The position numbers were made by a program, and so were the translations under genes. From the IMG/VR virus record IMGVR_UViG_3300035686_000003, positions 1 to 64,000 of that record: a stretch of DNA of 64,000 nt; one strand, given 5' to 3'. How positions within the stretch are numbered: position 1 is the stretch's first letter; each line of letters opens with the position of its first letter. The notes beneath the pieces were generated by a model. The model saw only the letters and a program-made list of their open reading frames with translations, made no database searches and was not told where the DNA came from. This DNA is from a virus. Lineage: Duplodnaviria > Caudoviricetes. Positions 3,066 to 64,000 of this stretch are shown here, one piece after another.

Positions 3066-4844
3066 ATGCCCTTAATCACGTCTAGACCAAAGGCTAAAAC
3101 AACGGTAGACGGGTTGCCCCTTGCGTATCAGCTATTTACCGAGGGCAATTACGTTCCAATTGTGACTGAGATTGAGAGGTCAACGCTTACTGATGATCTA
3201 ACGAATGCTGTCGTGGTCTTTAGTGCTAGTGGCGGCAATGATAGCGAATATTTCATCTCAAAGACTTCAGAATTTCCGAGCCAAGTTTCTTTGATTTCGA
3301 TTACGAATGATCGGATTAAAGCCTTGATCAAATTAGTCAAGGAGGATACGCTCTTTTTCCTTGATGGTGTAACTAACTTTCGCTACACGGTAGGGTTACG
3401 CACTGACGAAGGCTTGATGGAATTGGAGGCAGGCTACTTCAATGTCAACCCAAGTATTGCTCTTGGTAAGCTCTCGCAAACACCAACGCCTGATGCTGCT
3501 CCTATCATCGAACTGATGACTCCAAAGGTTAGCGATAACCTTTATGTTGGGCGTAAGTTCAAACTATTAGCGAAAGCTTCTGATGTTGGTGGGGCAATTC
3601 TCAAAGTTGACTTCTATGTCAATGATGCCAAGATTGGCTCCAATAACAGTTACTCAACGAAAGGGATATGGGACTACAGTTACACACCGACTCAAGCGGG
3701 AAGCTTAACTTTTTACGCGATCGCTAGCGATAGTAGCGGCTACGAAAGCAAGAGTAATGCTATAGCGGCATCTGTACAAGCGGAACCTGTTGTCCCTACT
3801 GCCAATTTCTCGTTTACTCCTTTGACAGGTGGTGCGCCCCTCAACGTCACCTTTATCAATACATCCGTCAATGCTTCAACGTATTCCTGGGACTTCGGTG
3901 ATGGTTCTGGAGTCAATACTTCAGCTTCTCCCACTCACATCTACCAAGAATCCGGCAACTACACTATTACCCTCACTGCCACAAACTTGTATGGCAGTGT
4001 AACGTTATCCAAGGGCATTACGGTAAATGTTGCAACAAACCAACCACCAACTGTTAATATCACAAATCCTGCGAACAATACAAGTGTAGTAGTAGGGCAA
4101 CAGTTAGCATTGACCGCAACAGCTAGCGATGGTGACGGGAGTGTGACGGGGGTTCAGTTCAAAGTCAATGGTGTTAACCAGGGAGCAAATCTTACCGCTT
4201 CCCCCTACACGACAGCATTTACCCCTAGCTCTCCCGGTTCCTACAGTATCACTGCTGTAGCAACAGATAACTTGGGTTTGACGACTACGAGCAGCGTTGT
4301 TTATCTAACTGTTACGGCTCCTACGACGACCACGACGACTACTCAGCCCCCCGTAGGAACAACTACCACCACAAGTACTACCCAGCCTCCTGCGACGACA
4401 ACAACGACGACTACGCAAGCATCTGGTACTACTACAACCACAACAGCGACAGTAGCTCCAACAACTACTACTACGACAACTGCTGCACCTACGACGACCA
4501 CAACTACTACGGCTGCTCCGACTACCACCACGACAACAACTACAGCTCAAGCGTTCGATAGAGTGTTTGTGTTCTCTAGTGGTAACAGTGGTGTGCTACA
4601 GAGTGGTGAGACTAACTTGACAGGTTGTACAGCTAACGCTGCTCAAAGTCCGACAACCCAGTTCAGATTCAGCAACATTGCGAATCGTCAAGGTACTCCT
4701 GCTAACATGACTATCTATCTTAGCAACACAGCATTCTTAAGCTTCAATTATCCCAGTGACTACGAAGGCAGACTCTTCTTACTCATTGATAACACTGGGG
4801 CACAACATCCAGGCGAAATCACCGCAGGAAGGGTTGACTTCTAA
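3066..4844 (+). CDS. Putative virion surface protein: Ig-like (Big_7-like x2) and PKD domains, mucin-like poly-Thr region, C-terminal shared module
   Basis: PKD motif YSWDFGDG...HIYQESGNYTITLT; Ig repeats (A.ASD.DG.V..V.F.VN); about 80-aa Thr-rich tract at 4310-4547; ATG 3066 preferred over GTG 2943. Confidence 0.8.
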   Translation: MPLITSRPKAKTTVDGLPLAYQLFTEGNYVPIVTEIERSTLTDDLTNAVVVFSASGGNDSEYFISKTSEFPSQVSLISITNDRIKALIKLVKEDTLFFLDGVTNFRYTVGLRTDEGLMELEAGYFNVNPSIALGKLSQTPTPDAAPIIELMTPKVSDNLYVGRKFKLLAKASDVGGAILKVDFYVNDAKIGSNNSYSTKGIWDYSYTPTQAGSLTFYAIASDSSGYESKSNAIAASVQAEPVVPTANFSFTPLTGGAPLNVTFINTSVNASTYSWDFGDGSGVNTSASPTHIYQESGNYTITLTATNLYGSVTLSKGITVNVATNQPPTVNITNPANNTSVVVGQQLALTATASDGDGSVTGVQFKVNGVNQGANLTASPYTTAFTPSSPGSYSITAVATDNLGLTTTSSVVYLTVTAPTTTTTTTQPPVGTTTTTSTTQPPATTTTTTTQASGTTTTTTATVAPTTTTTTTAAPTTTTTTTAAPTTTTTTTTAQAFDRVFVFSSGNSGVLQSGETNLTGCTANAAQSPTTQFRFSNIANRQGTPANMTIYLSNTAFLSFNYPSDYEGRLFLLIDNTGAQHPGEITAGRVDF

Positions 4845-5737
4845 TGCAAAGGATCTTTGTCCAGTTGGCAGCTTATCGCGATCCTGAGCTACCTTGGACA
4901 ATCAATGATGCGATCGCTAACGCACGTTATCCTGAGCGGCTAAGCTTTGGTGTTTGCTGGCAAGCTAATCCTGAAGACGATCAGTGGATTGTCGGACTTC
5001 AGTTCTTGTCGAATTGTCGAATCTATAAAGTGTTAGCCAAAGATTCAGATGGTTGCTGTTGGGCACGAGCGATAACTCAGTCGTTGTGGCAAGGGGAAGA
5101 GTATACTCTCCAAGTTGACTCTCATTCAAGGTTCGCTAAAGATTGGGATGTTAAGCTTCTGTCAATGTTAGCTGCTTGTGATAGCCCTAAGCCTGTGCTG
5201 ACTGCTTACCCTGCTAGCTACAGCTTTGCTTCTGGTATTGACCCTCAAGCTGTCCCCTATCGCATTGGAGCCAATTACTTTAACAACTATGGACTCTTGG
5301 AGCTACAGGCAACTAATGCAGTCGCTAGCGCCACTCCTGTGCGAGGGTATTTCTTGAGTGCAGGAATTATTTTTGGTGCGTCCTCCTGGATGAAAGATGT
5401 CCCCTATGACAAAGCCTTGTATTTCAATGGTGAAGAGTCCAGCCTTGCCGTGAGATTATTTACTAACGGTTGGGACTTGTTTCACCCCAATGAAGTTGTA
5501 GTTTACCACAATTATGGAAGAAGTGGTGCGCCAAGGCATCAATCAGAGTATACAAATGTTGAACGAGAGTTGCAGTCGTATGCTCGGTATCACGATATTG
5601 TTTCTGGCAAGGATTTAGGTAAGTTTGGTGTCGGGAATGTGAGGACGGTAGCTGATTATCAGCGAGAGTCTGGAGTAGATTTTATAAGTCAAAATATTAA
5701 CGAAAATTCTAAGAATGGAGTGTTTATAAATGCCTAA
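4844..5737 (+). CDS. GT60-family (Pfam GlcNAc-like) polypeptide/Skp1 alpha-GlcNAc transferase homologue
   Basis: IFVQLAAYRDPEL, YPERLSFGVCWQ, GCCWAR, EEYTLQVDSHSRF (DSH metal motif), KPVLTAYP, FNGEE..LAVRLFTNGWD..YHNY. Confidence 0.85.
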   Translation: MQRIFVQLAAYRDPELPWTINDAIANARYPERLSFGVCWQANPEDDQWIVGLQFLSNCRIYKVLAKDSDGCCWARAITQSLWQGEEYTLQVDSHSRFAKDWDVKLLSMLAACDSPKPVLTAYPASYSFASGIDPQAVPYRIGANYFNNYGLLELQATNAVASATPVRGYFLSAGIIFGASSWMKDVPYDKALYFNGEESSLAVRLFTNGWDLFHPNEVVVYHNYGRSGAPRHQSEYTNVERELQSYARYHDIVSGKDLGKFGVGNVRTVADYQRESGVDFISQNINENSKNGVFINA

Positions 5738-6770
5738 CATTAAGGGTTCTGCCAGTGGACGCCCGAACATCTTTGTCAGGATTGGCGCGACTCAGAACTT
5801 AGCAAGTAGTCCCTTCAATGCTACTAATACAAAAATTATTTATGCGTTAGATGCCAATGGTAACTTCCTTGGCTATACTCCTGGTCAAGCAGATTTCTTG
5901 CAGGGATTCTTAACTCTCAACACCAATGAAGGTTACTACTCCGTTAATACCCAAGACTTAACTGTTTCTGGCATTGTCCCCGATGAAGCTAGCACCACCA
6001 CTACAACGAGTAGCACTACGACTACAACCACTAGTAGTACAACAACTACCACAACAGTAAACGCTAGTGCTTATGCTCCAGCAACTCAAGCTGCGACTCA
6101 CCGTTGGGCAGTGCGAGCTAATACCGTAACGAAGGATGCTCAGAACAAGATTAGCGCGATCGCTGATTCTATCGGTTCACTGCCATTAGTCAACAACGCA
6201 ACACTCAAGCCGACATACGTTGAGAACGTTCAGAACTCTCAGCCTAGTGCCAGCTTTCGTACAGCTTCAGTACTAACTAATGCTCTAACTACTGTAACTA
6301 ATGTTGCTGTAGTGATGGTAATGAAGTTTAGTGACGACAACCCTTTTGGAAGCGTCTTCTTTGATGGTGCAACTAATCAACAAATTGGCTTGCAAACTAA
6401 TGGAATGACTGCTGCATCTACAACTTTTGCCATATTAGCTGGTGGAGGTGGTGCAACAGCTTCTTCTGTAGTCACGAATGCTTTTACCAACGCACACATT
6501 CTTGTAGCTTGGTTTGATAGCACACCTGGGACATTTACATCAAGCAAGATTTACTACGATGGGAACAAGCTAGTTCAGGATGGTGTTGCTCTTACCAATT
6601 TCAATGGTAAGTTGACTGTGGGAACACGAGCTGATCAAGCCGCTTCTTATGCCTTGTTTGAGTTACTCGACATGGTAATTCTGGAAAACCCAACTCTCAG
6701 CAATATTAATTACCACGGTCAAAACCTAGGAGCTATTTACAGTATTCCTTGGACAACCGCTACCCCATAG
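5730..6770 (+). CDS. Putative virion fibre: shared N-terminal module, Thr/Ser mucin-like linker, ConA/LamG-like lectin domain
   Basis: STTTTTSSTTTTTTSSTTTTTT at about 5990-6056; C-terminal beta-rich domain (SKIYYDG, LTVG). Confidence 0.65.
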   Translation: MPNIKGSASGRPNIFVRIGATQNLASSPFNATNTKIIYALDANGNFLGYTPGQADFLQGFLTLNTNEGYYSVNTQDLTVSGIVPDEASTTTTTSSTTTTTTSSTTTTTTVNASAYAPATQAATHRWAVRANTVTKDAQNKISAIADSIGSLPLVNNATLKPTYVENVQNSQPSASFRTASVLTNALTTVTNVAVVMVMKFSDDNPFGSVFFDGATNQQIGLQTNGMTAASTTFAILAGGGGATASSVVTNAFTNAHILVAWFDSTPGTFTSSKIYYDGNKLVQDGVALTNFNGKLTVGTRADQAASYALFELLDMVILENPTLSNINYHGQNLGAIYSIPWTTATP

Positions 6771-6781
6771 GATAGACGCTG

Positions 6782-9139
6782 ATGCCTAATCTTTCAACAA
6801 CTAATTTTGCAGTGTATTTGGGTAAGCTTCCACTGAAGTTGGGGACTACGCGATGCCCATTTACACTAGCGAATACCGTGTCTGTCTTTGGTTTTGATGA
6901 CCAAGGTAATGCTGTTAGCTGGGTTCCTGGTCGTAGTGATTTCTTAAACTCACTGACGGAACTCAAGCCTTACCGAGGTTACCTCCTCTCTCTTTCATCG
7001 CCCCTTACCCTTGACGACTTTGCACCTTCAATCCAGCCTAATGTAGTTGCGGGAGCCAAGTTCTTCGTTGATTCTGTCAATGGCAATGACTCGAACAACG
7101 GTTTGACGCCAGCTACGGCATTCAGAAGTTTGTCTAAAGTTGCTACTGCCGCCAATGGCACAACTATCTACCTTGCAAGGGAGTCGTATTGGCGAGAAGA
7201 GTTAATTTTTGACAATAACTCGAACATGAGTTTTATTGCCTATGGTAGTGGAGCTAAGCCTGTCATTGATGGGTCTGATATCGCCCCAACAGGATTGTTT
7301 ACGGCTGACACGACTCACACGAACACCTTCCGAATCAACTGGAATCTCGCTACCAACTATCCTCCCAACAGTCCAATGAGGATTTCTGTTTGGGAGAACG
7401 ACATTCGGATGAAGCGAGTGTTTTCTGCTGACGACTGCAACACTACTCCAGGTTCTTTCCATGTTGTAGGGCAAGAGTCAGGCTCCGGCAATATGAGTAG
7501 CCTTAGTAACTCAACGACCTACCAAATTTACGTTCGCCCATTCTCAGGAGGTGTTGCTGGCAAGGTTTATGATATTACGAAACGGCTTGTCTGCTTGTCG
7601 GGAGGAAACAATGCTCTCGTAGATGGAATTCATGGGAAAAAAGCTGGAATTAACGATGGTTCCATACGAGTCTTCTATGACTCTAACGTTAAGAACTGTG
7701 TCGCTGAACATGGAACCAAGCATAACTTCTATATCCAGAGTGGTGCAACATCTAATTGTGTAGCTTACAAGTCTGGAGATCCCGACTGTATTCCCTTCAT
7801 CGCATTTACTCCCACTAGGACTGGAGTGGATTTCACCTATGACGATTGCATTGCTTTTCGTGACTTAAGCGATCCAACGTATTCCAATGATACTTCTGGA
7901 GGCTGGGGTAGCCACGGTATCGGAGGCAGCACGATAGTTCGACGTATCGACATTCGGAATTGTGAAGCCTACAATTTTAGGGGTGGGATTGGTTCGGAGG
8001 CACAAACTTTCGTTGCCGACAACTGTTATGTTGAGCGTTGCGGTTCAGGTATTCAACCATCTGCTCCAATCTCTACGAACATCAGTGATTGCGAAGTGAA
8101 AGATTGTGCTGTGGGAGTTGCAATCGACTACTCTCAAGGTACTATCGATATCTCCAACAGTAAATTTTACGGATACCTTTATGGGGTGTTTAACGGATTT
8201 ACGAACAGGGTAAACAATGAGATTACCATAACGAACTGTGTCTTCGAGAGCGGTAGTGCGGCAAAAGTAGCGTATGGCGTCTACCTTGGTGGGTTTTCGC
8301 AACTCACAATGTTTAAGAACATCTTCTCCAATAACCTTTACTCTCTCCAGTGTTCAGGTGGGCAAGACATTAGCCTCATCAACAATAGTCAGAACGTTTA
8401 CTGGCACCCGACAGCGCAAGGTGCATTCGCAGGAACTCCTGTTGGCGCAGGCTACATTAACGCCTCTCTAGCTCAATGGCAATCGATTGCTACTACTGAT
8501 TTAGATTCAGTATTCGCTAATCCTAAGTTTGCGATTGCTGCACCAGTATTCTCGCTCCAAGGAGACTCTCCTGCGATTGCTTTAGGTGCTGGATTGATTT
8601 CCTCATTGTCAGCTCAACCTCCAGTAGTTACTCTTGCTGCTCCAAAAGTACGTCTAATCAATGAACCGTTAACGGTGACTGCTATTGTGACAGGTGGCAC
8701 TCTTACTACTCTCCAGTTTAGAGCTGATGGTGTATCGATAGGTGCTGCGGATACAGCTGTTCCCTATAGCGTAGCCTACACTCCTACAACGAAAGGAGTA
8801 AAGCAGTTGTCAGCTGTTGCGACATCTTCTGAAGGGCAAACGATAACTGCTGCAAACTATTCAATTACTGTATTTGATAGGAAGATAATGAGTGGCAGTG
8901 ACGGTGCAGGAACTTCACTTGTTGCCAGCACTGGAGATTATGTGTTGTTTGACAACAATCAGGCTGCTGGAGGGTTGCCTGCTACTGCTGAATTATTTAT
9001 TTCAGGATCTCAAGTAGGTGTATTGAACTATACAACCGATGCTTACAATAGCAAACCTTTTGTGTTCTATAGGAGCAGCAATAACTCGTTCTATTCGGGT
9101 ACAATTGCAGCAGGTACAGTAAATCTAACGTTGTTATAA
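6782..9139 (+). CDS. Tailspike/depolymerase-like right-handed beta-helix protein with Ig-like domain
   Basis: FFVDSVNGNDSNNGLTPATAFRSL cap motif; Asn/Cys ladder repeats; C-terminal Big_7-like domain. Confidence 0.75.
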   Translation: MPNLSTTNFAVYLGKLPLKLGTTRCPFTLANTVSVFGFDDQGNAVSWVPGRSDFLNSLTELKPYRGYLLSLSSPLTLDDFAPSIQPNVVAGAKFFVDSVNGNDSNNGLTPATAFRSLSKVATAANGTTIYLARESYWREELIFDNNSNMSFIAYGSGAKPVIDGSDIAPTGLFTADTTHTNTFRINWNLATNYPPNSPMRISVWENDIRMKRVFSADDCNTTPGSFHVVGQESGSGNMSSLSNSTTYQIYVRPFSGGVAGKVYDITKRLVCLSGGNNALVDGIHGKKAGINDGSIRVFYDSNVKNCVAEHGTKHNFYIQSGATSNCVAYKSGDPDCIPFIAFTPTRTGVDFTYDDCIAFRDLSDPTYSNDTSGGWGSHGIGGSTIVRRIDIRNCEAYNFRGGIGSEAQTFVADNCYVERCGSGIQPSAPISTNISDCEVKDCAVGVAIDYSQGTIDISNSKFYGYLYGVFNGFTNRVNNEITITNCVFESGSAAKVAYGVYLGGFSQLTMFKNIFSNNLYSLQCSGGQDISLINNSQNVYWHPTAQGAFAGTPVGAGYINASLAQWQSIATTDLDSVFANPKFAIAAPVFSLQGDSPAIALGAGLISSLSAQPPVVTLAAPKVRLINEPLTVTAIVTGGTLTTLQFRADGVSIGAADTAVPYSVAYTPTTKGVKQLSAVATSSEGQTITAANYSITVFDRKIMSGSDGAGTSLVASTGDYVLFDNNQAAGGLPATAELFISGSQVGVLNYTTDAYNSKPFVFYRSSNNSFYSGTIAAGTVNLTLL

Positions 9140-9465: not shown

Positions 9466-9954
9466 ATGCCAAAAGCAATTAGAACAGTAGACGTGGTAGC
9501 CAATGGAACAACAAGTCAAGTTCCATTAATTGTTGATAGAAATGCAAGCAATGAGGAAGCGATCGCAAGATCTTTGGTGTATGACGGAAATCTGGTCAGC
9601 CTAACCAACCCTTTGCCTATAGCCAGAGTTCCCAGGACACTAGCTGCAACCAATTACGCAACAGCCACTAACGCAAGCGCTATAGTGACCTACGCCGCTG
9701 TAGCTGGACAAAGTAATGTTATTTCAGGAATTGCGTTTTCTTATTCAGGAACTCCTGTTGGCGGTAGCTTAACGATTGCAGATGGTGCAACGACTGTTTT
9801 TTCTATTGATGTCATTTCTGGTGGAGCAGGATTTATTCCTTTCAATCCTCCTGTTCGGGGAACAACAAATACGGCTTTGACCATTACTCTTTCTGGGGGT
9901 GGTGCTGGCGTTGTTGGGAAAGTATCTGTCCTAGGTCGTTGGACAGAGGTATAA
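9466..9954 (+). CDS. Putative virion structural protein (beta-rich)
   Basis: G/T/A/V-rich; located in the coupled operon. Confidence 0.6.
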   Translation: MPKAIRTVDVVANGTTSQVPLIVDRNASNEEAIARSLVYDGNLVSLTNPLPIARVPRTLAATNYATATNASAIVTYAAVAGQSNVISGIAFSYSGTPVGGSLTIADGATTVFSIDVISGGAGFIPFNPPVRGTTNTALTITLSGGGAGVVGKVSVLGRWTEV

Positions 9955-9956
9955 CG

Positions 9957-52132: not shown

Positions 52133-55100
52133 ATGGCATTGGGTAGTGGCGGCAACTTAGGCACCTTGAGTCTACATATCGAGGCAGACACAAGAGATTT
52201 TGATACCAAAATACTCCAGGTAGAAAAACGTGCTGCCGAAGCTGGTCGCAGAATGTCCAAGTCTTTAGGGGGTGAATTATTCAAGGGGTTGGATAGCCCT
52301 TTGAGTGTGAATGTAGATCATACGTCCTTAAAGGAACTTAACGCTCACCTAGATCTAAAGAGAAAACACTTACATCAGGTCATTGAAGATTTCAAGCGAA
52401 ACCCCATTGTTGCCAAGTATAAAGTTGAAGGAAAAGAGGCTCTTGAAAACTCTAGTGAAACACTCAAGGCTTTAAGCAACAAGCAGGTTGGTGTATCTGT
52501 ACTGGGTACAGGCAAAGCACTAGGGGAGATGGAGGCGATCGCGTCTAAAGACTTAAGTCAGACTGCTCGCATTGATATTGAGATTCATGGTGAAAAAGAT
52601 CTTGACAGAATTTTGCGTAAAATGCAAAGACTTCAAGATAGAAGCATAAGGGTAAATGTTACTAGTGCAAACTATGAAGATATTTCAGCTCCAATAATTA
52701 GTGCTGGAATAAAAAAAACAGGGTTGGTGCCGGACAATTCTCCACAAGAGCGAGCATTACTCAAAGCAATAGAGAAAGTCGGCGGGAAAGAACAAAACGC
52801 TCCATTGTCTGCTGGTGGGCAGGAGATGAAAACTGCCGTTTCTCAAGCACTACGAGAAAATCAGCAAAGCTTTGGATCGCAAGCAGCCGCTACTGTTGTT
52901 AGCACATTGGTTGAACGAACTGTAGGACTCGCTCTGGAAGAAGGATTTTCTAGGGTGATGTTAATTATTTCTAATGTAATTAAAGACAAGCTAAGGTTTT
53001 TAGATTACATTGGACTTAAAGGACTACGACAAGAGCTAGAGAAGACAGTTACTAAAAATTATCGACAAGTAGCTTATACAGAGCAAGGAAGAATTGGCGG
53101 TTTTCGTGGTTTAGCGAGAGATGTTCGCAAAGTTGCTACACTTCCAGCAAAGATGTTGGCAGCACCAGCTTCTCAAGTCATCGGTGGTTTCTATGGTGGC
53201 ATTGGACAGGCATACGCAAGCGCTTTTGCTCGTGGTTCAATGAATAAGTTTCAAGAACGAACCGGAAAGTCAGTCGAAGAGGTTGGTGAAAAAGCTAGCG
53301 GGGGTTTAGCTGGTAGATTTACAGGCACTAATATTGCTGAAGGGTTAGTTTCCAGAGCTGGGACGATCAAGGGAGCGCAAGATTTCATAGAGCCTAGGCT
53401 AAGGACTGCTGCATTGGGGAGAGCGGTTCAGACTGTTGACCCAACTGGTCAAATAGAGAAAGTTCTTCAACCAATACTGAAGAGATATGGTGTCAGGTTA
53501 AACACAGAACCATTACGTAATGCTGATCCTGAGCCAATCACTAATTCTATAAAGAAAATTAGTCAAGCTCTGAAGCAGAACGATATTCAGAGGGATGTTG
53601 CAAACTTTACTCGTTCAATCTTGACGTTGGGCAAGGTAATTAAAACAACTCAACAAAATGTTAACCAGGCAACTACTCCAGAAGAACGCAGTAGTAGGCG
53701 AGGGCAAGCTGATGCAGCTAGAGCTGAGCAGATTGTAGAAATACTAGGAAATCTTGAAACTACCGCTCGCAATGCAACTGAGCCTATTATTAGCAACTAT
53801 AAAAAGGAAGTAGCCGCTGCCGCAAAAGCTTTGGGCGTAGAGCTTTCCAATATAAAAATTGACCCAGACAAACAGTTAGGTCAAGACATAAAAAATGTCG
53901 CAATAGTTTCCGGTGGATTTGCAGGAATGCAAGGGGAAGCTGGGCAAAGGCAGGCACCTATGTATGAACAGATACTAGGTGATGGAACCAAAGTGGTACC
54001 CTTTAATAACGAAGATTTTGATACTTCGGTAAAAGCTCAGGACGATAAGCCTGCTTGGGTTAGAGACATAGCTGGCTTGTTTGCAAGGAATATTAGCAAG
54101 GGCTACAATCCTGCCTCTATAAAAATGGCGCAACAGGCTGCTGAGTATAAGTTGACGAATCCAGCCGTTGATCTTCAACTAATTGGACATTCAGCGGGTG
54201 GGATTATTGTCAAAGAAGCACAGGCAATGCTTAAGGAAATCGGAATAGAAGCAAAAGCTATTGCCTTGGGTAGCCCAAATATAAGAGATGCGGCTTTCAA
54301 TGGGACGGACTCCAATTTTCTGAGTTTCATGGCAGAAAAGGATATGTTAAATCCTCTGTCAGGAGAAACAACTCCTAGAATACCAGGGATTGAGAATCAT
54401 TCTATTGATGAGTACCTATCCAACCAGGCAGTACAAGCAGTTTTAAAAACGGTAAGCAAGGTAGGGATTACGCCTAGGCTTATTGAAATTTTAAACAAAA
54501 CTGGTACAGAGTTTTCAGACTTAACTACGCTAACTCAAGCTTTAGAGGATCACCTTCGAGAATTCACAGGGTCGTTAGATAACGCTACTCAAGAAGTTGC
54601 AAATCAAAACATTGCTCCGTTACAGACTCCTGAAACAGATCCTAAACAGGCAGCGCTAAAAGCTAGGGTATTACTTTTAGCAAGAAAGTCCCAACAAATA
54701 ATTCCAAATTTCAACCCTGCTAATTATGGTAACGCTGCTAGTGCTGCTAGTACTAATAGACAACAGGCTTTACAAGCACTAGAATCCGTGAAAGGATTTG
54801 ATTTTAATCAGCAACTTTCAACTCAAACCTCTAATGAACTCAGGAAAGCAATTAGAAATCTTCAAAGTTTTCTCAAGAGAGCTGGACAAGAAGATAATAA
54901 CAATAGCATCACTGAGCTTGAGCAACTACCGCTTGATGAGTTAAGTACACTGATAGAAACAAACGTGGCAGCAGTTAATTCTATTGCTGCCAATTACCAG
55001 TCGTCTGCACAACAAATAGACGACTTAAAGGCTAGGCTGGGGAGCTTGACCGTCAAAGATTTAAGAGAGATTGGAGGAAAAGCAAACATTCCCAACCTGA

Positions 55101-58100
55101 GTCAGTTAAACAAAGATCCTTTAATCAATAAGTTAACTGAACCCCAGAATGCGTTTAATGTTGCAAAATTTGCTTCGGAAAAAGAACTCTTAAAGTCAAT
55201 ACGAAACGCAGAAAAAAAAGCAACTCAAGCTTTGCAGACGGCTCAAAAATTAAGTGGCGACGAAAAACTTAAGCTTCTTGCAGAGATTAGACAGTCTATT
55301 GAAGCTCAAATTCGCAACATAGACGCTAACTCTGAAAGGGTAACTGATTCAGGGTATAGGCAACGACTAGGAGCTACCAAAGGCAGGCTTGGGCAAAGCT
55401 ATCGTAGAACATTTGATGTTTCTTCGGTAGAAATAGATACAACTAGGCAAAGTCTACAAAATGCTATAGATCAGGGTGGTGCTACTCCTGGTTTATCAGC
55501 TGCTTATACAACACCACCAAAGAATTTTCAACGTTTGGTTGCTAATGCGGCTCAAGCAGCAGGGGTAGAGCTTAACGAGAAGAATCAACCGGAGCTAGTT
55601 GAAGATGACATAAAACTTTTAGCTTTAGGCTCGAAAGCTTTTTATGACTTTACAAAGAACCAAGTAATTGTATCGCGTAGGACAGCCCAAGCACTTAAAT
55701 CATCTGTTACTGACCTTCATAAATATGAAGAAGAACTTGGCGAGGCTATCCATGAAATACAACACGCAGCTGATCTAGGGTTTAGCAAGTTAGATCCCAC
55801 CAACTTTGGTTCTCAAATCATTGAAAAGTCAGCTAATATTCCTACCATTGAAGACTCTCAATTAACCAAAAAATTACTCAAACAAGTAGAGGGGTCTGTA
55901 TCTAATTACAAGATGCTACGACCTAATGCATCGCCTGCCGAACTTGCTGCGGTGCGAAAACTGGAGATGCACGCTTCATACCAACAAAAGAATGCACCTC
56001 AGTATATCAATCAGCTAAAAGATAAGTATGGACAAACGAAAACATCAAGAACTGAATTAGAGGGTATAAAGAAAAATCCTTTTGAGAATATCAGCAAGCA
56101 ATTTGAGAACTTTGTTAACACCATAAAAAAGGTATTGCGATCACTGTTTGCTGCTTTCGAGAATACATCTAGAGGACTTGCAATAGCTGATTCTTTTGCA
56201 ACGCTAAGCAACGTATTTGAAAATTTCAACAAGCAGATGTTGCGCTATGGAGAAGAACTGCAAGAGGTCTTTAATAATATTAGTCTTGCTTTTGACTTTG
56301 TTATTGGGATGTTCATGGAGAAAAATGCTCATGTTGATAAGCTAGTTCAAAAAGCAGAAAGATTTTATGTTAATTTCCAAAGAACCAAGAAAGGAGTTGC
56401 CGATCCCTCAGAAGGTTTGCCCTCTGGGGTAAAAGTAACAGAAAACAACCTCGTTTCCAAGAACAGAAGTTACAGTTTTCAAAGCAAAAGTGGCAAAGAA
56501 GTTGGGGTTTATTTTTCGCACAAGAAAAATATGTCCGATGTTCACTTTGACATTGACAAAAGTATGTCAACCAAAGTCAATGACATGAGCCAAAAGGAAA
56601 AAGATGCAATTGCTTTGAAAGTCTTGAAGATAATGAAGCATGATGCAAAAAGTAGAAAAGAGGGCTATCGTTACAAAACCTCAGCTTACACAGGAGATGA
56701 TTATGGAGCAGTTCGATCTGAAGCCTATGAGCAAATTGCTGGATTTAGTCGTCCTGTTGCAGGTAAGGTAGGAGGCTACCAGTTTGCCGTTGTTCAAGGA
56801 GGAAAGTTAACTCCTGACAATAAAAAATTAGAGCAGCAGGAATACATCCACGATCATTCACCTGATGATGTATCCCAAAATCTAGCTCAATTCAAAGAGC
56901 TTCTTGCAATTCAAAGACAAGCAGCAAAAGCAGCGGCAGCAAACAATCGTGCTAACAAGGGTTTGTCAGTTGCTAACGGCAGAGGCTTAGATGAAGCCTA
57001 CGAAAACTTTGAGAAGTTTGTAAATAAAGTTAATGATAAAGCAGAAGAGTTAATCAAAGCAACGTTTACGCCTGAACTAAAGCAACGAAGGGTAATAGAA
57101 TCAGCCGAAGCAATCAAGAGTTCTGCTCCTACAGGTAAAGCTGCTATGCCTGCCGCTGATAAAGAATTTTCAACTTATTTATCGGCAGGGTTTTCTGGTA
57201 TGCAAGGGTTCAACCCTCAAGTATATGAGAAAATGGCAGGAGTTTTGGGCGAAAAACACAATTTTGTACCCATTACAAATGAAGAGTACGACACTGATGC
57301 AACAGTGTTTGATGACTTGCCTGTTTTTCTAAAATCAGCACTTGAGAGAATTACTGCTGGCGGAATGAAGGGTATAAACCCAGCAGCCGCTAAGATGGCG
57401 CAAAGAGCCTATGAAGACTATCAACTTGACCCTTCAAAGAAAATCAGATTTGCTGGATATTCAGCAGGGGCACACGTAGCTTCTGATGCTTTAGAAATAT
57501 TTAAGCAGCTAGCACCTAACGCTGACGCTAGGGCTGTTGGTATTGGTGGGGCACCCTTTGATCAAAGGCGATCAACACTTCGACCAGAGCAATATGTCAA
57601 TATGTTGCGAAAGGATGACTTGCTCCTTCGTGCATTTGCTGGTGCCTTTAAGATGAATGGTGCCAACCAAAGGATTATTGAGCCGAGTGTTAATAAAGGG
57701 GCGATAAAAGCATTAGATGCTCACTTCATAGAAGGTTATGCCGATGATCAGAATACGGCAAGAGAACTAAAGTATCTTATCGAGGCATCTGAATCTGAGA
57801 TACAAGCATTTCTGAGTTCCGTAGCAGATAGCTCAAGTGTCCTTTCGGTTTTTGCAGACAACGCTGGAGCTTACAAAGGTACTGCTGAAGAAATAATAAA
57901 ACAGCTCGATAATCTTGCATCAGCATTAGAACAGAAGACGGCTCAAATTCAACCACGAATGCAACAACGTGGACAAGCGAGTTTGAATTCTGTAATGCAA
58001 TCTGGAATGGGTGCTTTTAACAACACCTTATCTAATGCTCAAGGACTGAGGCAGACGCCAGCACAAATGCAGCGTTTGATGGCTGAAGCACGAAAGCGAG

Positions 58101-61100
58101 CAATGCAATCAGCAGCGGCTACAGGTATTAGAGAAGGTCAGGGTATCCTTAATTCGGGAATTAATAAGACTTCAAGCTTAGCTGAGACATTTAGACAGCC
58201 TGGTGTAAAAGTCATTCAAGCATATGGAGAAGATCGAAAGGCGCAAGTGAGAGCTTCGTCAGCTCAAGCCATTGCAAGTGTAGCGAATGCGACAGAGGCA
58301 GTTTCTAACAGTATCAGTGAAGCGGCAAGAGTCTTAGCTGAAAAAGCTCAAAACACAAACAACGATGCATTAAAACTTCTTTACAACGAACTTTCCCTAA
58401 ATACTCCGGTGCTTGAAGCGATCGCACAGCGTACTGGACAAAAGGTAGAGACAATCATTCAGAACATTGCATCTGAAGCAGAAAACTCTATTAACGAAAA
58501 AACCCAACAACTTTCAAGTGGTTACCAAGGAGGGATCGATGCAGTTCAAGAAGGAGGTGAGCAAGCTAAAGGGTTTGTAAATGTTGTTGCAGGATTAAGT
58601 CAACGAGCAACTACAGATCCCATAGGAGCTTTCAATGAAGCTAAAGCGTTGTTAGCGGGAAAAATTCTAGATGATCTTAAAGCTAGATTCCCTATTTTTG
58701 GTGAGATTCAACGACGCTTTGGGATGATAACAGGGGCTGCAAGTGCTTTGGTAGGAGCTTTTGTGGGGTTTGCTGTTTTGAAAGGTGTGATGCTGTTCTT
58801 TGAGAAGATAGGGTTTGCGGCTATTGAAGTAGCAACTCGCTTTGAAAACTTAGAGCGCATCATTCGATTTACAAGTGGCAGTGCAACAGAAGCAGCACAA
58901 AATATTTCCTTTGTTCAAGGACTGTCAGACAAGTTTGCCTTGAATCCCGAAAAGGCAATGAGTGGATTTGCTCAGATGTCAGCGGCTGCACTCGAAACGC
59001 CTTTGCAAGGTGAAGGTGTTAAGAAGATTCAAAGCAGTATTTCTCAGGCATCAGCAGTCTATGGTTTAGCTCCAGAATCTCAAGAGCGAGTTTTTGTTGC
59101 ATTGAACCAGATGATTTCAAAGGGCACCGTAAGTTCAGAAGAACTTCGTCAACAACTCGGTGAATCGTTGCCTGGTGCCTTAAATATTGCAGCTCGAAGC
59201 ATGGGGGTTACAACCTCTGAATTCAACAAAATGTTAGAGCAAGGACAAGTTCTTTCAGAAGATTTCTTGCCTAAATTTGCAGCACAACTAGCGGCTGAAA
59301 CAGAAGGAGGCGTTGCTGGAGCAGCTACTAGCGCCCAAGCAAAAATTAATCGATTTAATAACGCAATCCTTACATCTCAAAACATTCTTGGTAAAGGTTT
59401 GATGCCTGTTAAGAATTTTGGCTTAGATGTTCTTACAGGTTTGTTGACAGGATTAACAAAAATCTTGCCAGTTGTTGCTCATCTCATGGGAAGCCTACTG
59501 TTCGCTTCTGTTTTGCAGCTGGGTAAATCATTCTATATGCTAGCAGCAAATCCGATGGTGAGAGGCGCAGTCTGGGGAGGACTCAAAGGGGCTATTGGTG
59601 GTCTGATAACTATCATTAAATCGCTTTCTGGTTACATTTCACAATTCGCAAAAGCTTTCCTCGTATTTACAGCAATTACCGAAGGCTACAAGATGTTCAA
59701 AGCTGCCACAGCAGACGGTGGTGGCGAAAGTAGAACTTATGCTGACAAACTGACAGAAGGGCTTGGCAAGTATCGTAAAGCTTTGGCTGATGCTCGTGGT
59801 GAGACTGAGGCACTTAAGAAATCTACAAGACCAGAGACGCTTCTAGATGCTACTTTCCTAGGCAACTTGATGCCGAAAGAAATAGAGGAAAATGATTCCC
59901 TAGCAAAGAAAGCTGGGTATTATGCAGGCAAGTTTACCTCAACTGGTTTACTCAACGAAGACCAGATTGAAGGGATGAGCAAAAATGCATTAGGTCGCAC
60001 TGCTCTCCAATGGGGACTCGGAGGTATTACAGGTGCCCAAAAGGGATTCGGTTTAGCAACCTTTGAAGAGAAGAAGTTTGCTGACCAACAAGTAGCAACA
60101 GGCGACATCAGAAGTGCAGCCAACGAAACTACTTCACAGATAATTTCTGCTATACCAGGCAAAGAACTAGCAGCATTGAAGGAGTATGACCGTAAGCTTC
60201 GAGACATCCAGATCAAGCGTCGTGGTATCAGTGAGACACAACCCCAGAACAAAGAGGCATTGAGGAAGCTCAAGGAGGAAGAAGCACAAATCCTCAAGAA
60301 CAGGGATGCTGCACAGAAACCTATCAGTGCATTACAAGCTCAAGCCCAAAGCTCGGTAGATGCATTAAAGGCTGAGGTGGAAAAGTATGAGAAGCTCGCC
60401 CTTGAACCCGGAAAGAATCAAGCCTACTACAAAGAAACACTCGCAGGACTCAAAGGTGACCTTGAAGCTGCATACAAGTTCCAAGATAAGCTAAATCAAT
60501 CAGTTGGTGAAGCTGTCAATGCATTTATCCTGTTACAACGACAGTTACAAAATGTAGCCGACCGTTTAGCTGATGCGAATGATCGTATTCAGATGATTGC
60601 TAACAGTGCAAAAGCTGACTTATTCGGAAGGACTGATTTAACTCCAGGTCAAAGGGAAGCGGGACAACAAGAGATTGAACAAGCTGCATTGGGTGAGCAG
60701 ATTAAGCAACGTCAAAGTGCAATTCAGCAATATCAGGTTCTCCTGGAAGATGCTGATAGCCAAAAGATCCTTGAAGCTCGTGGAATAACCAATGTTGATG
60801 CGATAGGTCAAGCTGAGTTAGGAACACTTGCAGGTAAAGCAAAGGATGGCACCCAGGAGAAAGAAGTTCTCACAAGGTTACAGGACGTTAAGCGACTCAA
60901 GCTCGAAACCCAAGATCTGACAGCTCAACTAGCTCAATCTCAAGCGGCAACTCGCGACAGAATCTATGATGCTAACAAACAAATTATTGATTACTTCAGA
61001 GAAGTATCCAGACAGTCTGCTGAGCTAGCTTTGTCAACGAAGGAAGCTGGGGCACAAATCGCAATGCAAGAGCAGAAGAATAAGCTCAAGTCAGCACTGC

Positions 61101-64000
61101 AAGGCTTCCAAGACAATTTCTTCAGCTCGTTCGTAGATTCTCTTATTGAAGGCGTAGATTCTCTCAATGAGCCAATAGCAGCAGCCATCGAAAGAGAAAG
61201 AGAAGTCCAGTCAGCCAAATTTGCTAAAGATGACCGTGATCGTCAAGCCTATGAGTTACAAAGGTCACTACCGTTAGCTGGTGCCGAAGTAAAGCTAGAC
61301 TTTGGTGCATTAGATTCAGCTCCCGTCAAAGAACTAGAGAAGACCCTCCAAAAGTCAGCAGAAGCTAGCAAACAAGTTACAGCAGCATCAAAAGAAACTG
61401 GTGCGGCGATCGCTGACTCGTCAAAGCAAGCTGGGAACCTGAATACTAATGTAACCAAAGTTGCCGAAGACACGAAAGAGACTAAAGCAGCAACTGACAA
61501 CGTAACGACTGCACTAAAGGAGAACGTTGAAGCTGCTCAAAAAGTTGGTGGACAGGTTTACCTCAACACTCAGGAAGTCGATGCAAACACTTTGGCTATC
61601 GGTGGCACCAATGACGCCCTTGGGAACCAGAGTGATGCTCTTGCTGGCTTAGGTGGGCAGTTGCTTGAGCAAGGGGGTTTGATTGATGGGATTAATAGCA
61701 TCTGGAACACTGTTAGTGGAACCATTGCTGGAGCAGCTGCTAGGACTTGGGATTGGTTTAAGGGATTGGTTGCAAACACTCCCATCCTAAGTGGAATCAT
61801 GGAAACTCTTGACGGTTGGGCTAAAAGCATTCAGAATGCAATTGCTAAAGCTTGGGAATTCTTCAAAGGATTAGCTGATAACGTTCCATTCTTGCGTTCC
61901 ATTGCTGATGCAGTAGGAGCCATTGGTTCAGGTATTGGTGGGGCTGTTCAAAATGGAATGCAAGCGATTGGTATTGGCAGGGAACAAATAAATACTGGGA
62001 AGGGTGTAGGTGTCGTTGGAAAATATACCATCGTGGAGAGTGTTGGTGGTGCTATCCAAAACGTCAATACCTTTAGAGATTTAGAAAAACATCATCCCTC
62101 TAGAGGTCGAGAAGCAGGTAGAAGCTACGGTCATGTTGATGGAGAATTTGAAGAAATTAGAAATACTAGAGATGGACGCACTCTAGTTAAAAAAGATTTC
62201 GTTCTGTCAAAAAATGGAAATCAAAATGTAGATATCCCAGCGATGGCTTCTGGTTTCGTCAAAGTGCTAGGTGATGCCACCAACACTGTCCAGATCTATG
62301 CCGATAAAGAAATGACAAAACTTCTTGGGCAGTCATTGCACCAAAGAAGTGTAGCAGTAAAAACAGGACAATTTGTTAACTACGGGCAATCGCTGGGTAT
62401 TCAAGGAGATAGGGGTTCGCCAGGTGCAATTCATGCACACATTGAACTAGAGAAAAGTAGATTTGAACAATACATCAAAGATCTCAAAGATGGAACCTTC
62501 GAGGGTGTAAATGGTGGTGTTAGCACAGCATTAGATGGTGCTGGCGGATCAGTAGTGAAGCTTGGACAAACAATGGTTCAAGAATTAGCTCACTACCCTG
62601 GAGATGGACACAATCATGGTGGCTTTGACGGCAAACAATCTCAGGCTGAACGCTCAAATCTTCAAGGTGCTGGAAACATCCTTCGTGGTGGGAATTTCAA
62701 TCCCTTTGCTGGTGGATCTAATTCATTTGCAGCAAGAGTAGTCGGTCATAGCGAAGGCAACCGAACGGCAACTGGCGGTTTCAACCGTGGCTACAGGGGT
62801 CATGGTGACCCTGGCAATGGTCAAAGAAATGTCGGTTCGTTCAGTGTGCAAACGGGAACTCATGGAAATATGAGTGCTGAACAAGCCGATGTGTATTGGC
62901 AAAAGAAACTGGCGGCAGTGTTGCCACAATTCCAAACAGCAGCAAGAGGTGCTGGATTAGACCCAAACAATCCTAAGCTTCTGGCAAACTTCCTTGACCT
63001 CCACACTCAGTCGCCAGCTGCTGCTACTGATAAAGGGCATCGTAATTTCCTAAGTCAGCTACCTGCGATCGCTAAAGCGGGTATGAGCGATGAGTCGATA
63101 TTACAAGCTCGGATGTCAGGCTACTATCGCAACAATGGTCGTGCTAACTTCCCTGGCTTTGGCAATGACCCCAACCGTCTGCGTCGTGACCAGATGCGGC
63201 GTATGGCGGCACTGCAAGCGGCTCTACCAGGTGCAATACAAGCTACAGGGGCACCAGCAGGTTCTAGTGGAGTAGTTGCTTCAGGAGCGGCTCCAGCGGC
63301 ACAACAGAACTTACCTGTGTTAGCTCCAGTACCTTTTGCTTCCATGAGTAGCACAAGTGTCGATACGGCACCACTGTCTGCTGCTCAAGCGGAAAGTGAA
63401 AGAATTCGTCGTGAACAAGAACGTCAAGCCATTGCCAAGGAACGTGCAAGAAACGAGGAAGCTCGTGTTCAAGGTGAGCAAAGGCAGCGTCAGCGACTAG
63501 AGCAACTACGGCAAAGCATCCGTGATACGGAAGGCGATCGCATCCAAACGAATCGTCAATTCACGAACCTGGGACTAGACGCACAAATCCAAACACCAGA
63601 CGTTGAGTCAAGTAGAAAGATACTTGGTGTCAACGAGACTTATGATGACTTAGAGCGTGACATTGCTGAGAAGGTTCGCAAGGCAACAGCTGGTCGTGAC
63701 CAAGCTAGGGCGACTTTACAAAAATTAAGTTCTCCCGACTACGTTCCTCAACCAGGACAAGATGTTGGACGTGACATCGAAGCAACACGTACAGCTATTA
63801 CCCAGGCTGAGAAGTATTTGGGTGACCTTACGAGAATTCAAGGTGAACTGAAAGGTCAGCGTCAGGAAAGAATTCGCTTTGAGGAGGAACAGGCTGCTCG
63901 TGAGAAGAAACTTCGTGAACAGCAAGAACGATTTGCCACTGAAGAAATCAGTATCTCAGTTCTAGAAGCTGAAGCTCAACGACTCAAAGATTTGCGAGGG
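52133..64000 (+). CDS. Giant multi-domain tape measure protein (at least 3,956 aa, runs off window end; absent from ORF track)
   Basis: MALGSGGNLGTLSLHIEADT start; frame spot-checked at six points; tape measure motif QMISKGTVSSEELRQQLGESLPGA at 59108; GHSAG, GYSAG, HEIQH, M23-like HAH and lysozyme-like motifs. Confidence 0.85.
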   Translation, partial: MALGSGGNLGTLSLHIEADTRDFDTKILQVEKRAAEAGRRMSKSLGGELFKGLDSPLSVNVDHTSLKELNAHLDLKRKHLHQVIEDFKRNPIVAKYKVEGKEALENSSETLKALSNKQVGVSVLGTGKALGEMEAIASKDLSQTARIDIEIHGEKDLDRILRKMQRLQDRSIRVNVTSANYEDISAPIISAGIKKTGLVPDNSPQERALLKAIEKVGGKEQNAPLSAGGQEMKTAVSQALRENQQSFGSQAAATVVSTLVERTVGLALEEGFSRVMLIISNVIKDKLRFLDYIGLKGLRQELEKTVTKNYRQVAYTEQGRIGGFRGLARDVRKVATLPAKMLAAPASQVIGGFYGGIGQAYASAFARGSMNKFQERTGKSVEEVGEKASGGLAGRFTGTNIAEGLVSRAGTIKGAQDFIEPRLRTAALGRAVQTVDPTGQIEKVLQPILKRYGVRLNTEPLRNADPEPITNSIKKISQALKQNDIQRDVANFTRSILTLGKVIKTTQQNVNQATTPEERSSRRGQADAARAEQIVEILGNLETTARNATEPIISNYKKEVAAAAKALGVELSNIKIDPDKQLGQDIKNVAIVSGGFAGMQGEAGQRQAPMYEQILGDGTKVVPFNNEDFDTSVKAQDDKPAWVRDIAGLFARNISKGYNPASIKMAQQAAEYKLTNPAVDLQLIGHSAGGIIVKEAQAMLKEIGIEAKAIALGSPNIRDAAFNGTDSNFLSFMAEKDMLNPLSGETTPRIPGIENHSIDEYLSNQAVQAVLKTVSKVGITPRLIEILNKTGTEFSDLTTLTQALEDHLREFTGSLDNATQEVANQNIAPLQTPETDPKQAALKARVLLLARKSQQIIPNFNPANYGNAASAASTNRQQALQALESVKGFDFNQQLSTQTSNELRKAIRNLQSFLKRAGQEDNNNSITELEQLPLDELSTLIETNVAAVNSIAANYQSSAQQIDDLKARLGSLTVKDLREIGGKANIPNLSQLNKDPLINKLTEPQNAFNVAKFASEKELLKSIRNAEKKATQALQTAQKLSGDEKLKLLAEIRQSIEAQIRNIDANSERVTDSGYRQRLGATKGRLGQSYRRTFDVSSVEIDTTRQSLQNAIDQGGATPGLSAAYTTPPKNFQRLVANAAQAAGVELNEKNQPELVEDDIKLLALGSKAFYDFTKNQVIVSRRTAQALKSSVTDLHKYEEELGEAIHEIQHAADLGFSKLDPTNFGSQIIEKSANIPTIEDSQLTKKLLKQVEGSVSNYKMLRPNASPAELAAVRKLEMHASYQQKNAPQYINQLKDKYGQTKTSRTELEGIKKNPFENISKQFENFVNTIKKVLRSLFAAFENTSRGLAIADSFATLSNVFENFNKQMLRYGEELQEVFNNISLAFDFVIGMFMEKNAHVDKLVQKAERFYVNFQRTKKGVADPSEGLPSGVKVTENNLVSKNRSYSFQSKSGKEVGVYFSHKKNMSDVHFDIDKSMSTKVNDMSQKEKDAIALKVLKIMKHDAKSRKEGYRYKTSAYTGDDYGAVRSEAYEQIAGFSRPVAGKVGGYQFAVVQGGKLTPDNKKLEQQEYIHDHSPDDVSQNLAQFKELLAIQRQAAKAAAANNRANKGLSVANGRGLDEAYENFEKFVNKVNDKAEELIKATFTPELKQRRVIESAEAIKSSAPTGKAAMPAADKEFSTYLSAGFSGMQGFNPQVYEKMAGVLGEKHNFVPITNEEYDTDATVFDDLPVFLKSALERITAGGMKGINPAAAKMAQRAYEDYQLDPSKKIRFAGYSAGAHVASDALEIFKQLAPNADARAVGIGGAPFDQRRSTLRPEQYVNMLRKDDLLLRAFAGAFKMNGANQRIIEPSVNKGAIKALDAHFIEGYADDQNTARELKYLIEASESEIQAFLSSVADSSSVLSVFADNAGAYKGTAEEIIKQLDNLASALEQKTAQIQPRMQQRGQASLNSVMQSGMGAFNNTLSNAQGLRQTPAQMQRLMAEARKRAMQSAAATGIREGQGILNSGINKTSSLAETFRQPGVKVIQAYGEDRKAQVRASSAQAIASVANATEAVSNSISEAARVLAEKAQNTNNDALKLLYNELSLNTPVLEAIAQRTGQKVETIIQNIASEAENSINEKTQQLSSGYQGGIDAVQEGGEQAKGFVNVVAGLSQRATTDPIGAFNEAKALLAGKILDDLKARFPIFGEIQRRFGMITGAASALVGAFVGFAVLKGVMLFFEKIGFAAIEVATRFENLERIIRFTSGSATEAAQNISFVQGLSDKFALNPEKAMSGFAQMSAAALETPLQGEGVKKIQSSISQASAVYGLAPESQERVFVALNQMISKGTVSSEELRQQLGESLPGALNIAARSMGVTTSEFNKMLEQGQVLSEDFLPKFAAQLAAETEGGVAGAATSAQAKINRFNNAILTSQNILGKGLMPVKNFGLDVLTGLLTGLTKILPVVAHLMGSLLFASVLQLGKSFYMLAANPMVRGAVWGGLKGAIGGLITIIKSLSGYISQFAKAFLVFTAITEGYKMFKAATADGGGESRTYADKLTEGLGKYRKALADARGETEALKKSTRPETLLDATFLGNLMPKEIEENDSLAKKAGYYAGKFTSTGLLNEDQIEGMSKNALGRTALQWGLGGITGAQKGFGLATFEEKKFADQQVATGDIRSAANETTSQIISAIPGKELAALKEYDRKLRDIQIKRRGISETQPQNKEALRKLKEEEAQILKNRDAAQKPISALQAQAQSSVDALKAEVEKYEKLALEPGKNQAYYKETLAGLKGDLEAAYKFQDKLNQSVGEAVNAFILLQRQLQNVADRLADANDRIQMIANSAKADLFGRTDLTPGQREAGQQEIEQAALGEQIKQRQSAIQQYQVLLEDADSQKILEARGITNVDAIGQAELGTLAGKAKDGTQEKEVLTRLQDVKRLKLETQDLTAQLAQSQAATRDRIYDANKQIIDYFREVSRQSAELALSTKEAGAQIAMQEQKNKLKSALQGFQDNFFSSFVDSLIEGVDSLNEPIAAAIEREREVQSAKFAKDDRDRQAYELQRSLPLAGAEVKLDFGALDSAPVKELEKTLQKSAEASKQVTAASKETGAAIADSSKQAGNLNTNVTKVAEDTKETKAATDNVTTALKENVEAAQKVGGQVYLNTQEVDANTLAIGGTNDALGNQSDALAGLGGQLLEQGGLIDGINSIWNTVSGTIAGAAARTWDWFKGLVANTPILSGIMETLDGWAKSIQNAIAKAWEFFKGLADNVPFLRSIADAVGAIGSGIGGAVQNGMQAIGIGREQINTGKGVGVVGKYTIVESVGGAIQNVNTFRDLEKHHPSRGREAGRSYGHVDGEFEEIRNTRDGRTLVKKDFVLSKNGNQNVDIPAMASGFVKVLGDATNTVQIYADKEMTKLLGQSLHQRSVAVKTGQFVNYGQSLGIQGDRGSPGAIHAHIELEKSRFEQYIKDLKDGTFEGVNGGVSTALDGAGGSVVKLGQTMVQELAHYPGDGHNHGGFDGKQSQAERSNLQGAGNILRGGNFNPFAGGSNSFAARVVGHSEGNRTATGGFNRGYRGHGDPGNGQRNVGSFSVQTGTHGNMSAEQADVYWQKKLAAVLPQFQTAARGAGLDPNNPKLLANFLDLHTQSPAAATDKGHRNFLSQLPAIAKAGMSDESILQARMSGYYRNNGRANFPGFGNDPNRLRRDQMRRMAALQAALPGAIQATGAPAGSSGVVASGAAPAAQQNLPVLAPVPFASMSSTSVDTAPLSAAQAESERIRREQERQAIAKERARNEEARVQGEQRQRQRLEQLRQSIRDTEGDRIQTNRQFTNLGLDAQIQTPDVESSRKILGVNETYDDLERDIAEKVRKATAGRDQARATLQKLSSPDYVPQPGQDVGRDIEATRTAITQAEKYLGDLTRIQGELKGQRQERIRFEEEQAAREKKLREQQERFATEEISISVLEAEAQRLKDLRG

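Follow-up and report, generated by a model that had tools for sequence, protein, structure and literature searches.

Can a bacterial virus decorate its own fibres by mucin-type O-glycosylation, using a single enzyme? This question is raised by positions 3066 to 6770 of the first 64 kb (64,000 nucleotides, analysed here at full length as the window) of IMGVR_UViG_3300035686_000003, a tailed-phage genome of 147.7 kb that is rated complete by CheckV. In this region, a gene for a glycosyltransferase (GT) lies between two open reading frames (ORFs), ORF1 and ORF3, both of which encode fibre-like proteins with long threonine tracts. An earlier reading of the window, made from the letters alone (the sequence-only reading), had proposed that the enzyme belongs to CAZy family GT60 and glycosylates its two neighbours. 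We found that the enzyme is a GT60 member predicted to be cytoplasmic, that the neighbours are modular fibre-like proteins, and that Thr-rich genes are enriched next to viral GT60 genes; these parts of the proposal stand, whereas the implied coupling of GT60 to Thr tracts turned out not to be obligate. The features on which the argument rests are as follows.

3066..4844, + strand: ORF1, a 592-residue fibre-like protein (Pfam Big_7, E = 2.9e-20; PKD, E = 5.5e-16).
4323..4544, + strand: poly-Thr tract of ORF1, a candidate acceptor region of 74 residues, 50 of them Thr, with T7-T8 runs flanked by AP, QPP or AAP.
4545..4841, + strand: tip module of ORF1, about 95 residues, all-beta, 54% identical to the C-terminus of a 714-residue protein of contig L009.
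4844..5737, + strand: GT60 (PF11397) glycosyltransferase, 297 residues, soluble, GT-A fold (Pfam, PHROG, AlphaFold2 model, Foldseek).
5730..6770, + strand: ORF3, a 346-residue fibre-like protein with a docking module (residues 1-85), a poly-Thr/Ser stalk and a ConA/LamG-like domain (residues 112-346).
5994..6056, + strand: poly-Thr/Ser tract of ORF3, a candidate acceptor region of 21 residues (17 Thr and 4 Ser, arranged as T5-SS-T6-SS-T6).

The assignment of the GT was examined at the levels of sequence profile, fold and metal-binding motif. The Pfam profile GlcNAc (PF11397, CAZy GT60), by which the sequence-only reading had suggested checking its assignment, matches clearly with E = 3.5e-62 and 211.4 bits, compared to the curated cut-off of 21, and a genome-level search agrees; the PHROG family phrog_24687 is matched with E = 8e-56. 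The AlphaFold2 model (predicted local distance difference test, pLDDT, 95.5) has a GT-A fold, and ranks 1-46 of its Foldseek matches in the PDB are all occupied by polypeptide N-acetylgalactosaminyltransferases (ppGalNAc-Ts; E = 3.5e-11, template modelling score, TM-score, 0.58-0.67), i.e., the enzymes with which the same reading had claimed kinship. Searches of the PDB at the sequence level, with the GT sequence and with a GT profile, returned zero matches, and the fold search alone succeeded. The metal-binding DxH motif is present as DSH at residues 92-94 (nt 5117-5125), together with a conserved distal histidine, His222 (nt 5507-5509); D92, H94 and H222 show no variation across 30 homologues. 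No transmembrane or signal segments were detected in the GT, ORF1 or ORF3, in agreement with the absence of signal peptides noted earlier, and this supports the prediction that the enzyme and both candidate substrates are cytoplasmic. Genes of the GT2 or GT1 families were not found in the genome, and thus no elongating GT was found; therefore, if only enzymes of the phage were at work, the glycan at each site would consist of one sugar.

The three genes are all on the + strand and overlap. ORF1 (ATG start; the upstream GTG at 2943 likewise leaves the frame open) runs into the GT through a TAATG junction at 4842-4846, and the GT overlaps ORF3 by 8 nt at 5730-5737, exactly the overlap with both neighbours that had been described from the letters. 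The Thr tracts are exceptional within the phage: among the 448 ORFs of at least 60 residues in the whole genome, only ORF1 and ORF3 contain runs of four or more Thr, so that the earlier statement, that these two are the sole mucin-like proteins of the window, can be extended to the entire genome. The Thr codons are mixed in both tracts, as had been reported (in ORF1, ACT 15, ACA 14, ACG 13 and ACC 8), and Tandem Repeats Finder detects just a weak 33-nt repeat of 2.2 copies; because of this, the tracts are not a simple DNA repeat. The units of the ORF1 tract, which include APTTTTTTTQPP, AAPTTTTTTTAAP and QPPATTTTTTTQ, resemble KPPTTTTTTTTKPP, the validated acceptor peptide in assays of the Trypanosoma cruzi GT60 activity, which transfers alpha-linked N-acetylglucosamine (GlcNAc) onto Thr of mucins and requires Mn2+ (PMC3769586). 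We propose the Thr-run peptides APTTTTTTTQPP and STTTTTSSTTTTTT as candidate acceptors for the phage enzyme.

At least 581 viral contigs encode the GT60/PF11397 family. For dereplicated loci, we counted Thr-rich ORFs, i.e., those with at least 10 Thr in 20 residues, within 8 kb of the anchor gene, and compared viral GT60 loci with bacterial GT60 loci and with viral loci anchored on ribonucleotide reductase (RNR), which was chosen because a control anchored on the J protein gave just 2 loci. Thr-rich ORFs were found at 21 of the 67 viral GT60 loci, 2 of the 77 bacterial GT60 loci and 2 of the 68 RNR-anchored viral loci, the latter being controls not matched for structural modules (Fisher p = 6.5e-6 for 21/67 versus 2/68). 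When only loci with full flanks were taken, the fractions were 20/41, 2/43 and 1/26, respectively (p = 9e-5); thus, the survey of GT60 neighbourhoods that the sequence-only reading had suggested gives an enrichment for viral loci and not for bacterial ones. The signal is local: immediately next to the GT, Thr-rich ORFs reach a density of 24 per 100 kb, compared to 1.7-4.1 per 100 kb further out, and direct adjacency of a Thr-rich gene and the GT was observed at 10 loci versus 3.5 expected, an approximately 3-fold excess (within-locus permutation, p = 0.00075). Most often, the Thr-rich gene immediately precedes the GT60 gene and shares its strand. On the GT tree, the presence of a Thr-rich neighbour requires at least 12 changes, so that many lineages contribute to the enrichment. 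It should be noted that the tracts at other viral GT60 loci are mostly Pro-Thr (PT) repeats, with pure poly-Thr being rare (2 of 41 loci reach 12 Thr in 20 residues), and that PHROG and Pfam scans of the Thr-rich neighbours at these loci gave no structural annotation.

In the cyanophage (see below for the host), the flanking genes can be described more closely. ORF1 consists, from N- to C-terminus, of a region without an assigned fold, two Big_7 immunoglobulin-like (Ig) domains, a PKD domain, the poly-Thr linker and the tip module. A search with the ORF1 shaft yielded a relative in genome G001 and PKD-only matches, and nothing else. The tip module is common to the C-termini of ORF1, ORF4, the 714-residue L009 protein and the G001 orthologue of ORF1 (alignment A3); the family has 65 representatives, nearly all with the module at the C-terminus. 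The fold of the module, modelled with pLDDT 88, found no match in the PDB (Foldseek E > 0.1; VIA Z <= 3.5). ORF3 has a different layout: its N-terminus is 52% identical to L009-357, a protein of contig L009 that carries a longer tract at the matching position, and its C-terminal domain has structural neighbours in the ESM Atlas at TM-scores of 0.80-0.84, mostly from Uroviricota and some of them Laminin_G_3. Homologue searches with ORF3 found L009-357 alone, and those with the C-terminal domain as query found nothing. These domain matches and alignments bear out the earlier view that the tracts separate Ig/PKD or docking modules from terminal domains. Downstream of ORF3, the + strand carries ORF4, ORF5, ORF6 and the gene for a PhoD-like enzyme, separated by very short gaps; ORF4 and ORF5 are listed here.

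6782..9139, + strand: ORF4, a 785-residue tailspike-like protein (phrog_16653, hydrolase), 44% identical to L009-590, a protein of contig L009.
9142..9456, + strand: ORF5, 104 residues, docking module only, with a 117-residue counterpart in G001.

ORF4 combines a docking module like that of ORF3 with a beta-helix hydrolase region, an Ig domain and a tip module, the latter joined without a Thr linker; its relative L009-590 has Beta_helix/NosD matches in Pfam. The N-terminal docking module of about 85 residues is common to ORF3, ORF4, ORF5 and proteins of L009 and G001 (alignment A2), which would be the pattern expected of several fibres docking on one site. The architecture of ORF1 and ORF3 is that of fibres or tailspikes and suggests that both are present in the virion. 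The PhoD-like phosphodiesterase of the same operon (9939-11870; Pfam PhoD, E = 1e-20; phrog_24476) has a C-terminal extension of about 220 residues and is absent from G001.

G001 is a close relative of the whole phage (J protein 71% identical; genome 87% complete) and permits a direct comparison. Its ORF1 orthologue is 73% identical over residues 1-420, its Ig repeats run straight into the tip module, and it has no in-frame Thr run; the GT, ORF3 and ORF4 are all absent from this 87% complete genome. Of the two phages, one has both the GT and the tracts, and the other has neither. The nearest relatives of the GT itself are found on contigs L005, L009, L010 and L387 (48-49% identity; one clade with support 98; HIP1-rich contigs, see below). 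L009 resembles the window: a tip-module orthologue behind a Thr tract, an ORF3 orthologue with a Thr tract and an ORF4 orthologue are followed by the GT. Immediately 3' of the GT in L009 (10945-12552) and L387 (2195-3406), at the edge of the structural operon, there is an IS605 OrfB/TnpB-like gene.

Among bacterial homologues, two point to peptides. P0086 is a fusion of PqqD with GT60. In L119 (positions 5746-9113; Coleofasciculus sp. B1-GNL1-01), a same-strand operon encodes a 222-residue PqqD-like protein, a 521-residue membrane protein and an overlapping 373-residue GT60; in the 222-residue protein, the PqqD-like N-terminus is followed by a hydrophobic segment, then by a (PT)n repeat and finally by a tail rich in Cys. 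This arrangement looks like a peptide glycosylation operon of the kind that acts on ribosomally synthesized and post-translationally modified peptides (RiPP-like), and both cases would link bacterial GT60 relatives to peptides. In L170 (2566-8984; Scytonema hofmanni UTEX 2349), a protein of 826 residues with PT repeats, two small ORFs and a GT60 gene lie beside an integrase-like ORF, and this may be a prophage remnant with the PT-repeat/GT60 pairing. In four contigs of filamentous cyanobacteria (L093, L388, L389 and L390), the chromosomal GT60 gene is conserved beside a GerE-type response regulator, and in two of them the regulator and GT60 genes are preceded by genes for a T2SSE-type ATPase and a KaiB-like protein.

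The flanking tracts, the enrichment and the peptide-linked bacterial relatives are circumstantial evidence that the acceptor of the cyanophage GT is a polypeptide, as for the GT60 family, where it is Thr in Thr-rich tracts, or Hyp. The explanation that we favour, and that we place slightly above an even chance, is cytoplasmic one-enzyme O-glycosylation of the Thr linkers on the fibres of the phage itself, ORF1 and ORF3. A soluble, cytoplasmic GT60 would be translated from the late transcript that also encodes the fibre proteins and would move a single N-acetylhexosamine onto the tract threonines of ORF1 and ORF3, either while virions are being assembled or earlier. The donor is probably UDP-GlcNAc, the sugar thus probably GlcNAc, and the reaction would be Mn-dependent through D92, H94 and H222. 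The distal binding domains would then be connected to the shaft or docking modules by extended stalks with dense O-glycosylation. Any benefit to the phage, such as stiff stalks, sheath penetration or protease resistance, is a matter of speculation.

Several observations weigh against this explanation. In L005, L010 and L387, the intact GT directly follows an orthologous 578-residue fibre-like protein that ends without tract or tip, and no Thr-rich ORF was found near the GT of these contigs within up to 10 kb (L005 was examined over 20.9 kb), i.e., three of the four nearest GT relatives have no poly-Thr nearby. Since these loci keep the GT without a tract, the GT can do without long Thr tracts, and the L005-type loci show that a further acceptor or role must exist, or must once have existed, for the enzyme; what this clade conserves is a GT that closes a structural operon, not the tract. 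Two metagenome scans for relatives of the L005-type fibre protein were empty. Beyond the clade, a Thr-rich ORF is missing from about half of the viral GT60 loci with full flanks, and of 80 viral loci with seven or more consecutive Thr codons only one has GT60 in the stretch examined. In the crAss-like structural module L392:2902-10561 (Crass_capsid), four ORFs contain 13-15 Thr in 20 residues, one of the four carrying the tip module, and no GT60 is present in 17.7 kb; in a matched test on the tip-module family, the poly-Thr members were this one, without GT60, and two on contigs shorter than 1.6 kb. The cultured jumbo phages XacN1 and RAS14 have GT60 beside a carbamoyltransferase and GT9, near a DNA polymerase, and no Thr-rich ORF. 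The unmatched RNR control also counts here, as does the consideration that the G000/G001 and L009 contrasts could reflect a single block transfer of a host-range cassette in which the GT was a passenger. Thr-rich neighbours at homologous viral loci are recurrent, well above controls, and the coupling is not obligate. The layout in Xanthomonas phage XacN1 (L396, 7989-16937), in which a longer GT60 homologue (457-478 residues in jumbo phages) is followed by the carbamoyltransferase, with GT9 nearby, is that of a sugar-modification cluster, unlike the fibre context of the cyanophage GT.

Some of these observations lend weight to the possibility that the tracts are plain, unmodified flexible linkers and that the GT60 acts on other structural sites of the phage, e.g., in the protein encoded just upstream, and travels with the fibre operon. 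At L005, L010 and L387, the GT follows the 578-residue protein lacking a Thr tract, the genes upstream of it encode virion structural proteins (phrog_1645; in L005, the GT closes the operon), and Thr or PT linkers are widespread without GT60. We nevertheless consider this possibility unlikely, given that the biochemistry of the family favours Thr runs, that the excess of Thr-rich genes directly beside viral GT60 is about 3-fold, and that an enzyme active in the same cytoplasm could hardly leave Thr runs of such length and exposure untouched.

About equally improbable, in our view, is an auxiliary, moron-type role, in which a possibly host-derived GT60 modifies, in the infected cell, a host protein or an envelope component, e.g., as a block to superinfection or to keep progeny from binding to debris. 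The PHROGs category of the family is indeed "moron, auxiliary metabolic gene and host takeover", and chromosomal homologues with 42-44% identity, which lack Thr-rich neighbours, are found in the likely hosts, filamentous cyanobacteria. However, the phage GT clade is not nested in the cyanobacterial clade, the GT has no membrane or secretion signal, its gene lies in an operon of late type and overlaps the fibre genes that flank it, and such a role would leave unexplained why Thr-rich neighbours are enriched at viral and not at bacterial loci. Modification of phage DNA or of a nucleotide precursor (DNA hypermodification) is far less probable still. It would fit L005, where the GT overlaps a DNA methyltransferase gene with dCTP deaminase and ThyX 3-4 kb away, and the proximity of GT60 to DNA polymerase in XacN1 and RAS14; yet the GT of the window is embedded among fibre genes, and its fold is like that of ppGalNAc-Ts. 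The known phage DNA enzymes of the GT-A type are JGT/TarP-like and carry the motifs R...DDD...EDY/F (bioRxiv 10.1101/2023.12.21.572611), which the cyanophage GT, with its DSH, lacks. As to base-modifying genes of the 5mYOX or thymidylate-synthase-like type, the positions next to the GT in the window have none. O-glycosylation of the fibre linkers remains our preferred explanation.

The phage as a whole encodes, among others, a DNA polymerase, an RNR and helicases, and two further genes with predicted tail functions lie far from the fibre operon.

52133..64000 in the window, continuing to 66370 in the genome: an ORF of 4745 residues, a tape-measure candidate of very great length, directly upstream of the J-like gene.
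68241..70976 of the genome: a J-like central tail fibre.

A 1012-residue protein (114896-117934) was considered as a clear large terminase subunit and rejected, as it rather resembles a helicase/terminase-type ATPase; the cultured phages that come nearest in the J protein, or in this protein, give no clue to the host. Such a clue comes from the HIP1 octamer GCGATCGC, the abundance of which is a signature of many cyanobacteria: the window contains 32 copies (including those at 3717, 4910, 6156 and 9559) compared to 0.44 expected, and the whole genome contains 65. The density is 8.5-14 per 10 kb in L005, L009, L010 and L387 and 0.7-2 per 10 kb in the relative G001, and at the other 67 viral GT60 loci the count is always below three copies. 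Because HIP1 is so strongly over-represented, the designation cyanophage, which the sequence-only reading had used, is well supported. Filamentous cyanobacteria are the likely hosts. Scans for promoters and terminators remained at chance level, and matches of the cassette DNA to cultured phages were confined to low-complexity stretches.

A literature search on GT60/PF11397 in phages found no publication, in line with the earlier statement that no GT60-plus-mucin cassette had been described in a cyanophage. To our knowledge, glycosylation of phage virions has been demonstrated by experiment only in a few actinobacteriophages. A wider proposal, to which we give slightly less than an even chance, is that the GT60s of tailed phages constitute a widespread, undescribed cytoplasmic mucin-type system acting on Thr or Pro-Thr linkers in fibre and appendage proteins of the phages themselves, with the cyanophage as the minimal case (one enzyme, two substrates, pure poly-Thr); polypeptide GT60 activity would thereby extend beyond eukaryotes for the first time. 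If so, mucin-type O-glycosylation would exist in bacterial viruses and in the bacterial cytoplasm and would involve hundreds of environmental phages (about half of the well-covered loci among the contigs surveyed have a Thr-rich neighbour), with a bearing on phage stability, host recognition, immune recognition and the origin of the eukaryotic GT60/GT27 initiation enzymes. The present locus contributes to this picture a clade of cyanophages that includes tracts of pure poly-Thr, a layout with a single enzyme, and clear examples against an obligate coupling; it is also a compact test case, with a soluble enzyme of 297 residues and two short, well-defined candidate acceptor tracts.

Three known systems come closest to the one proposed for the cyanophage. 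The eukaryotic GT60s (T. cruzi TcOGNT-2, Dictyostelium Gnt2 and Gnt1) share with it the Pfam family, the GT-A fold and the DxH motif. Gnt1 is cytoplasmic, and the cyanophage GT is likewise predicted to be soluble and cytoplasmic. The acceptors in T. cruzi are Thr runs of the KPPT8KPP type (PMC3769586), and the candidate acceptors of the cyanophage are Thr runs, too. The cyanophage GT differs from these eukaryotic enzymes in that it is phage-encoded, has 297 residues and no membrane anchor, works without a Golgi and has fibre linkers as its candidate acceptors. The closest solved structures are those of animal and apicomplexan enzymes of GT27 (GalNAc-T1, T2, T4, T10 and T12; TgGalNAc-T3; PGANT9), which have the DSH-type metal motif and Thr/Pro-rich acceptors (the Thr-rich ones of the cyanophage being candidates); however, sequence identity is just 12-17%, the cyanophage GT has no lectin domain, and the CAZy family is different. 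Among phages, virion glycosylation in mycobacteriophages has reportedly been proven by experiment (Freeman et al. 2023), whereas the cyanophage system is predicted from its genes. Common to both are a phage-encoded GT within or beside structural genes and the decoration, in the cyanophage a proposed one, of the virion proteins of the phage itself. According to PMC12619734, the mycobacteriophage glycans are placed at the C-termini of capsid and tail-tube subunits; in the cyanophage, by comparison, the proposed sites lie within fibre-like proteins, in their internal linkers, the GT belongs to GT60, and the host is cyanobacterial.

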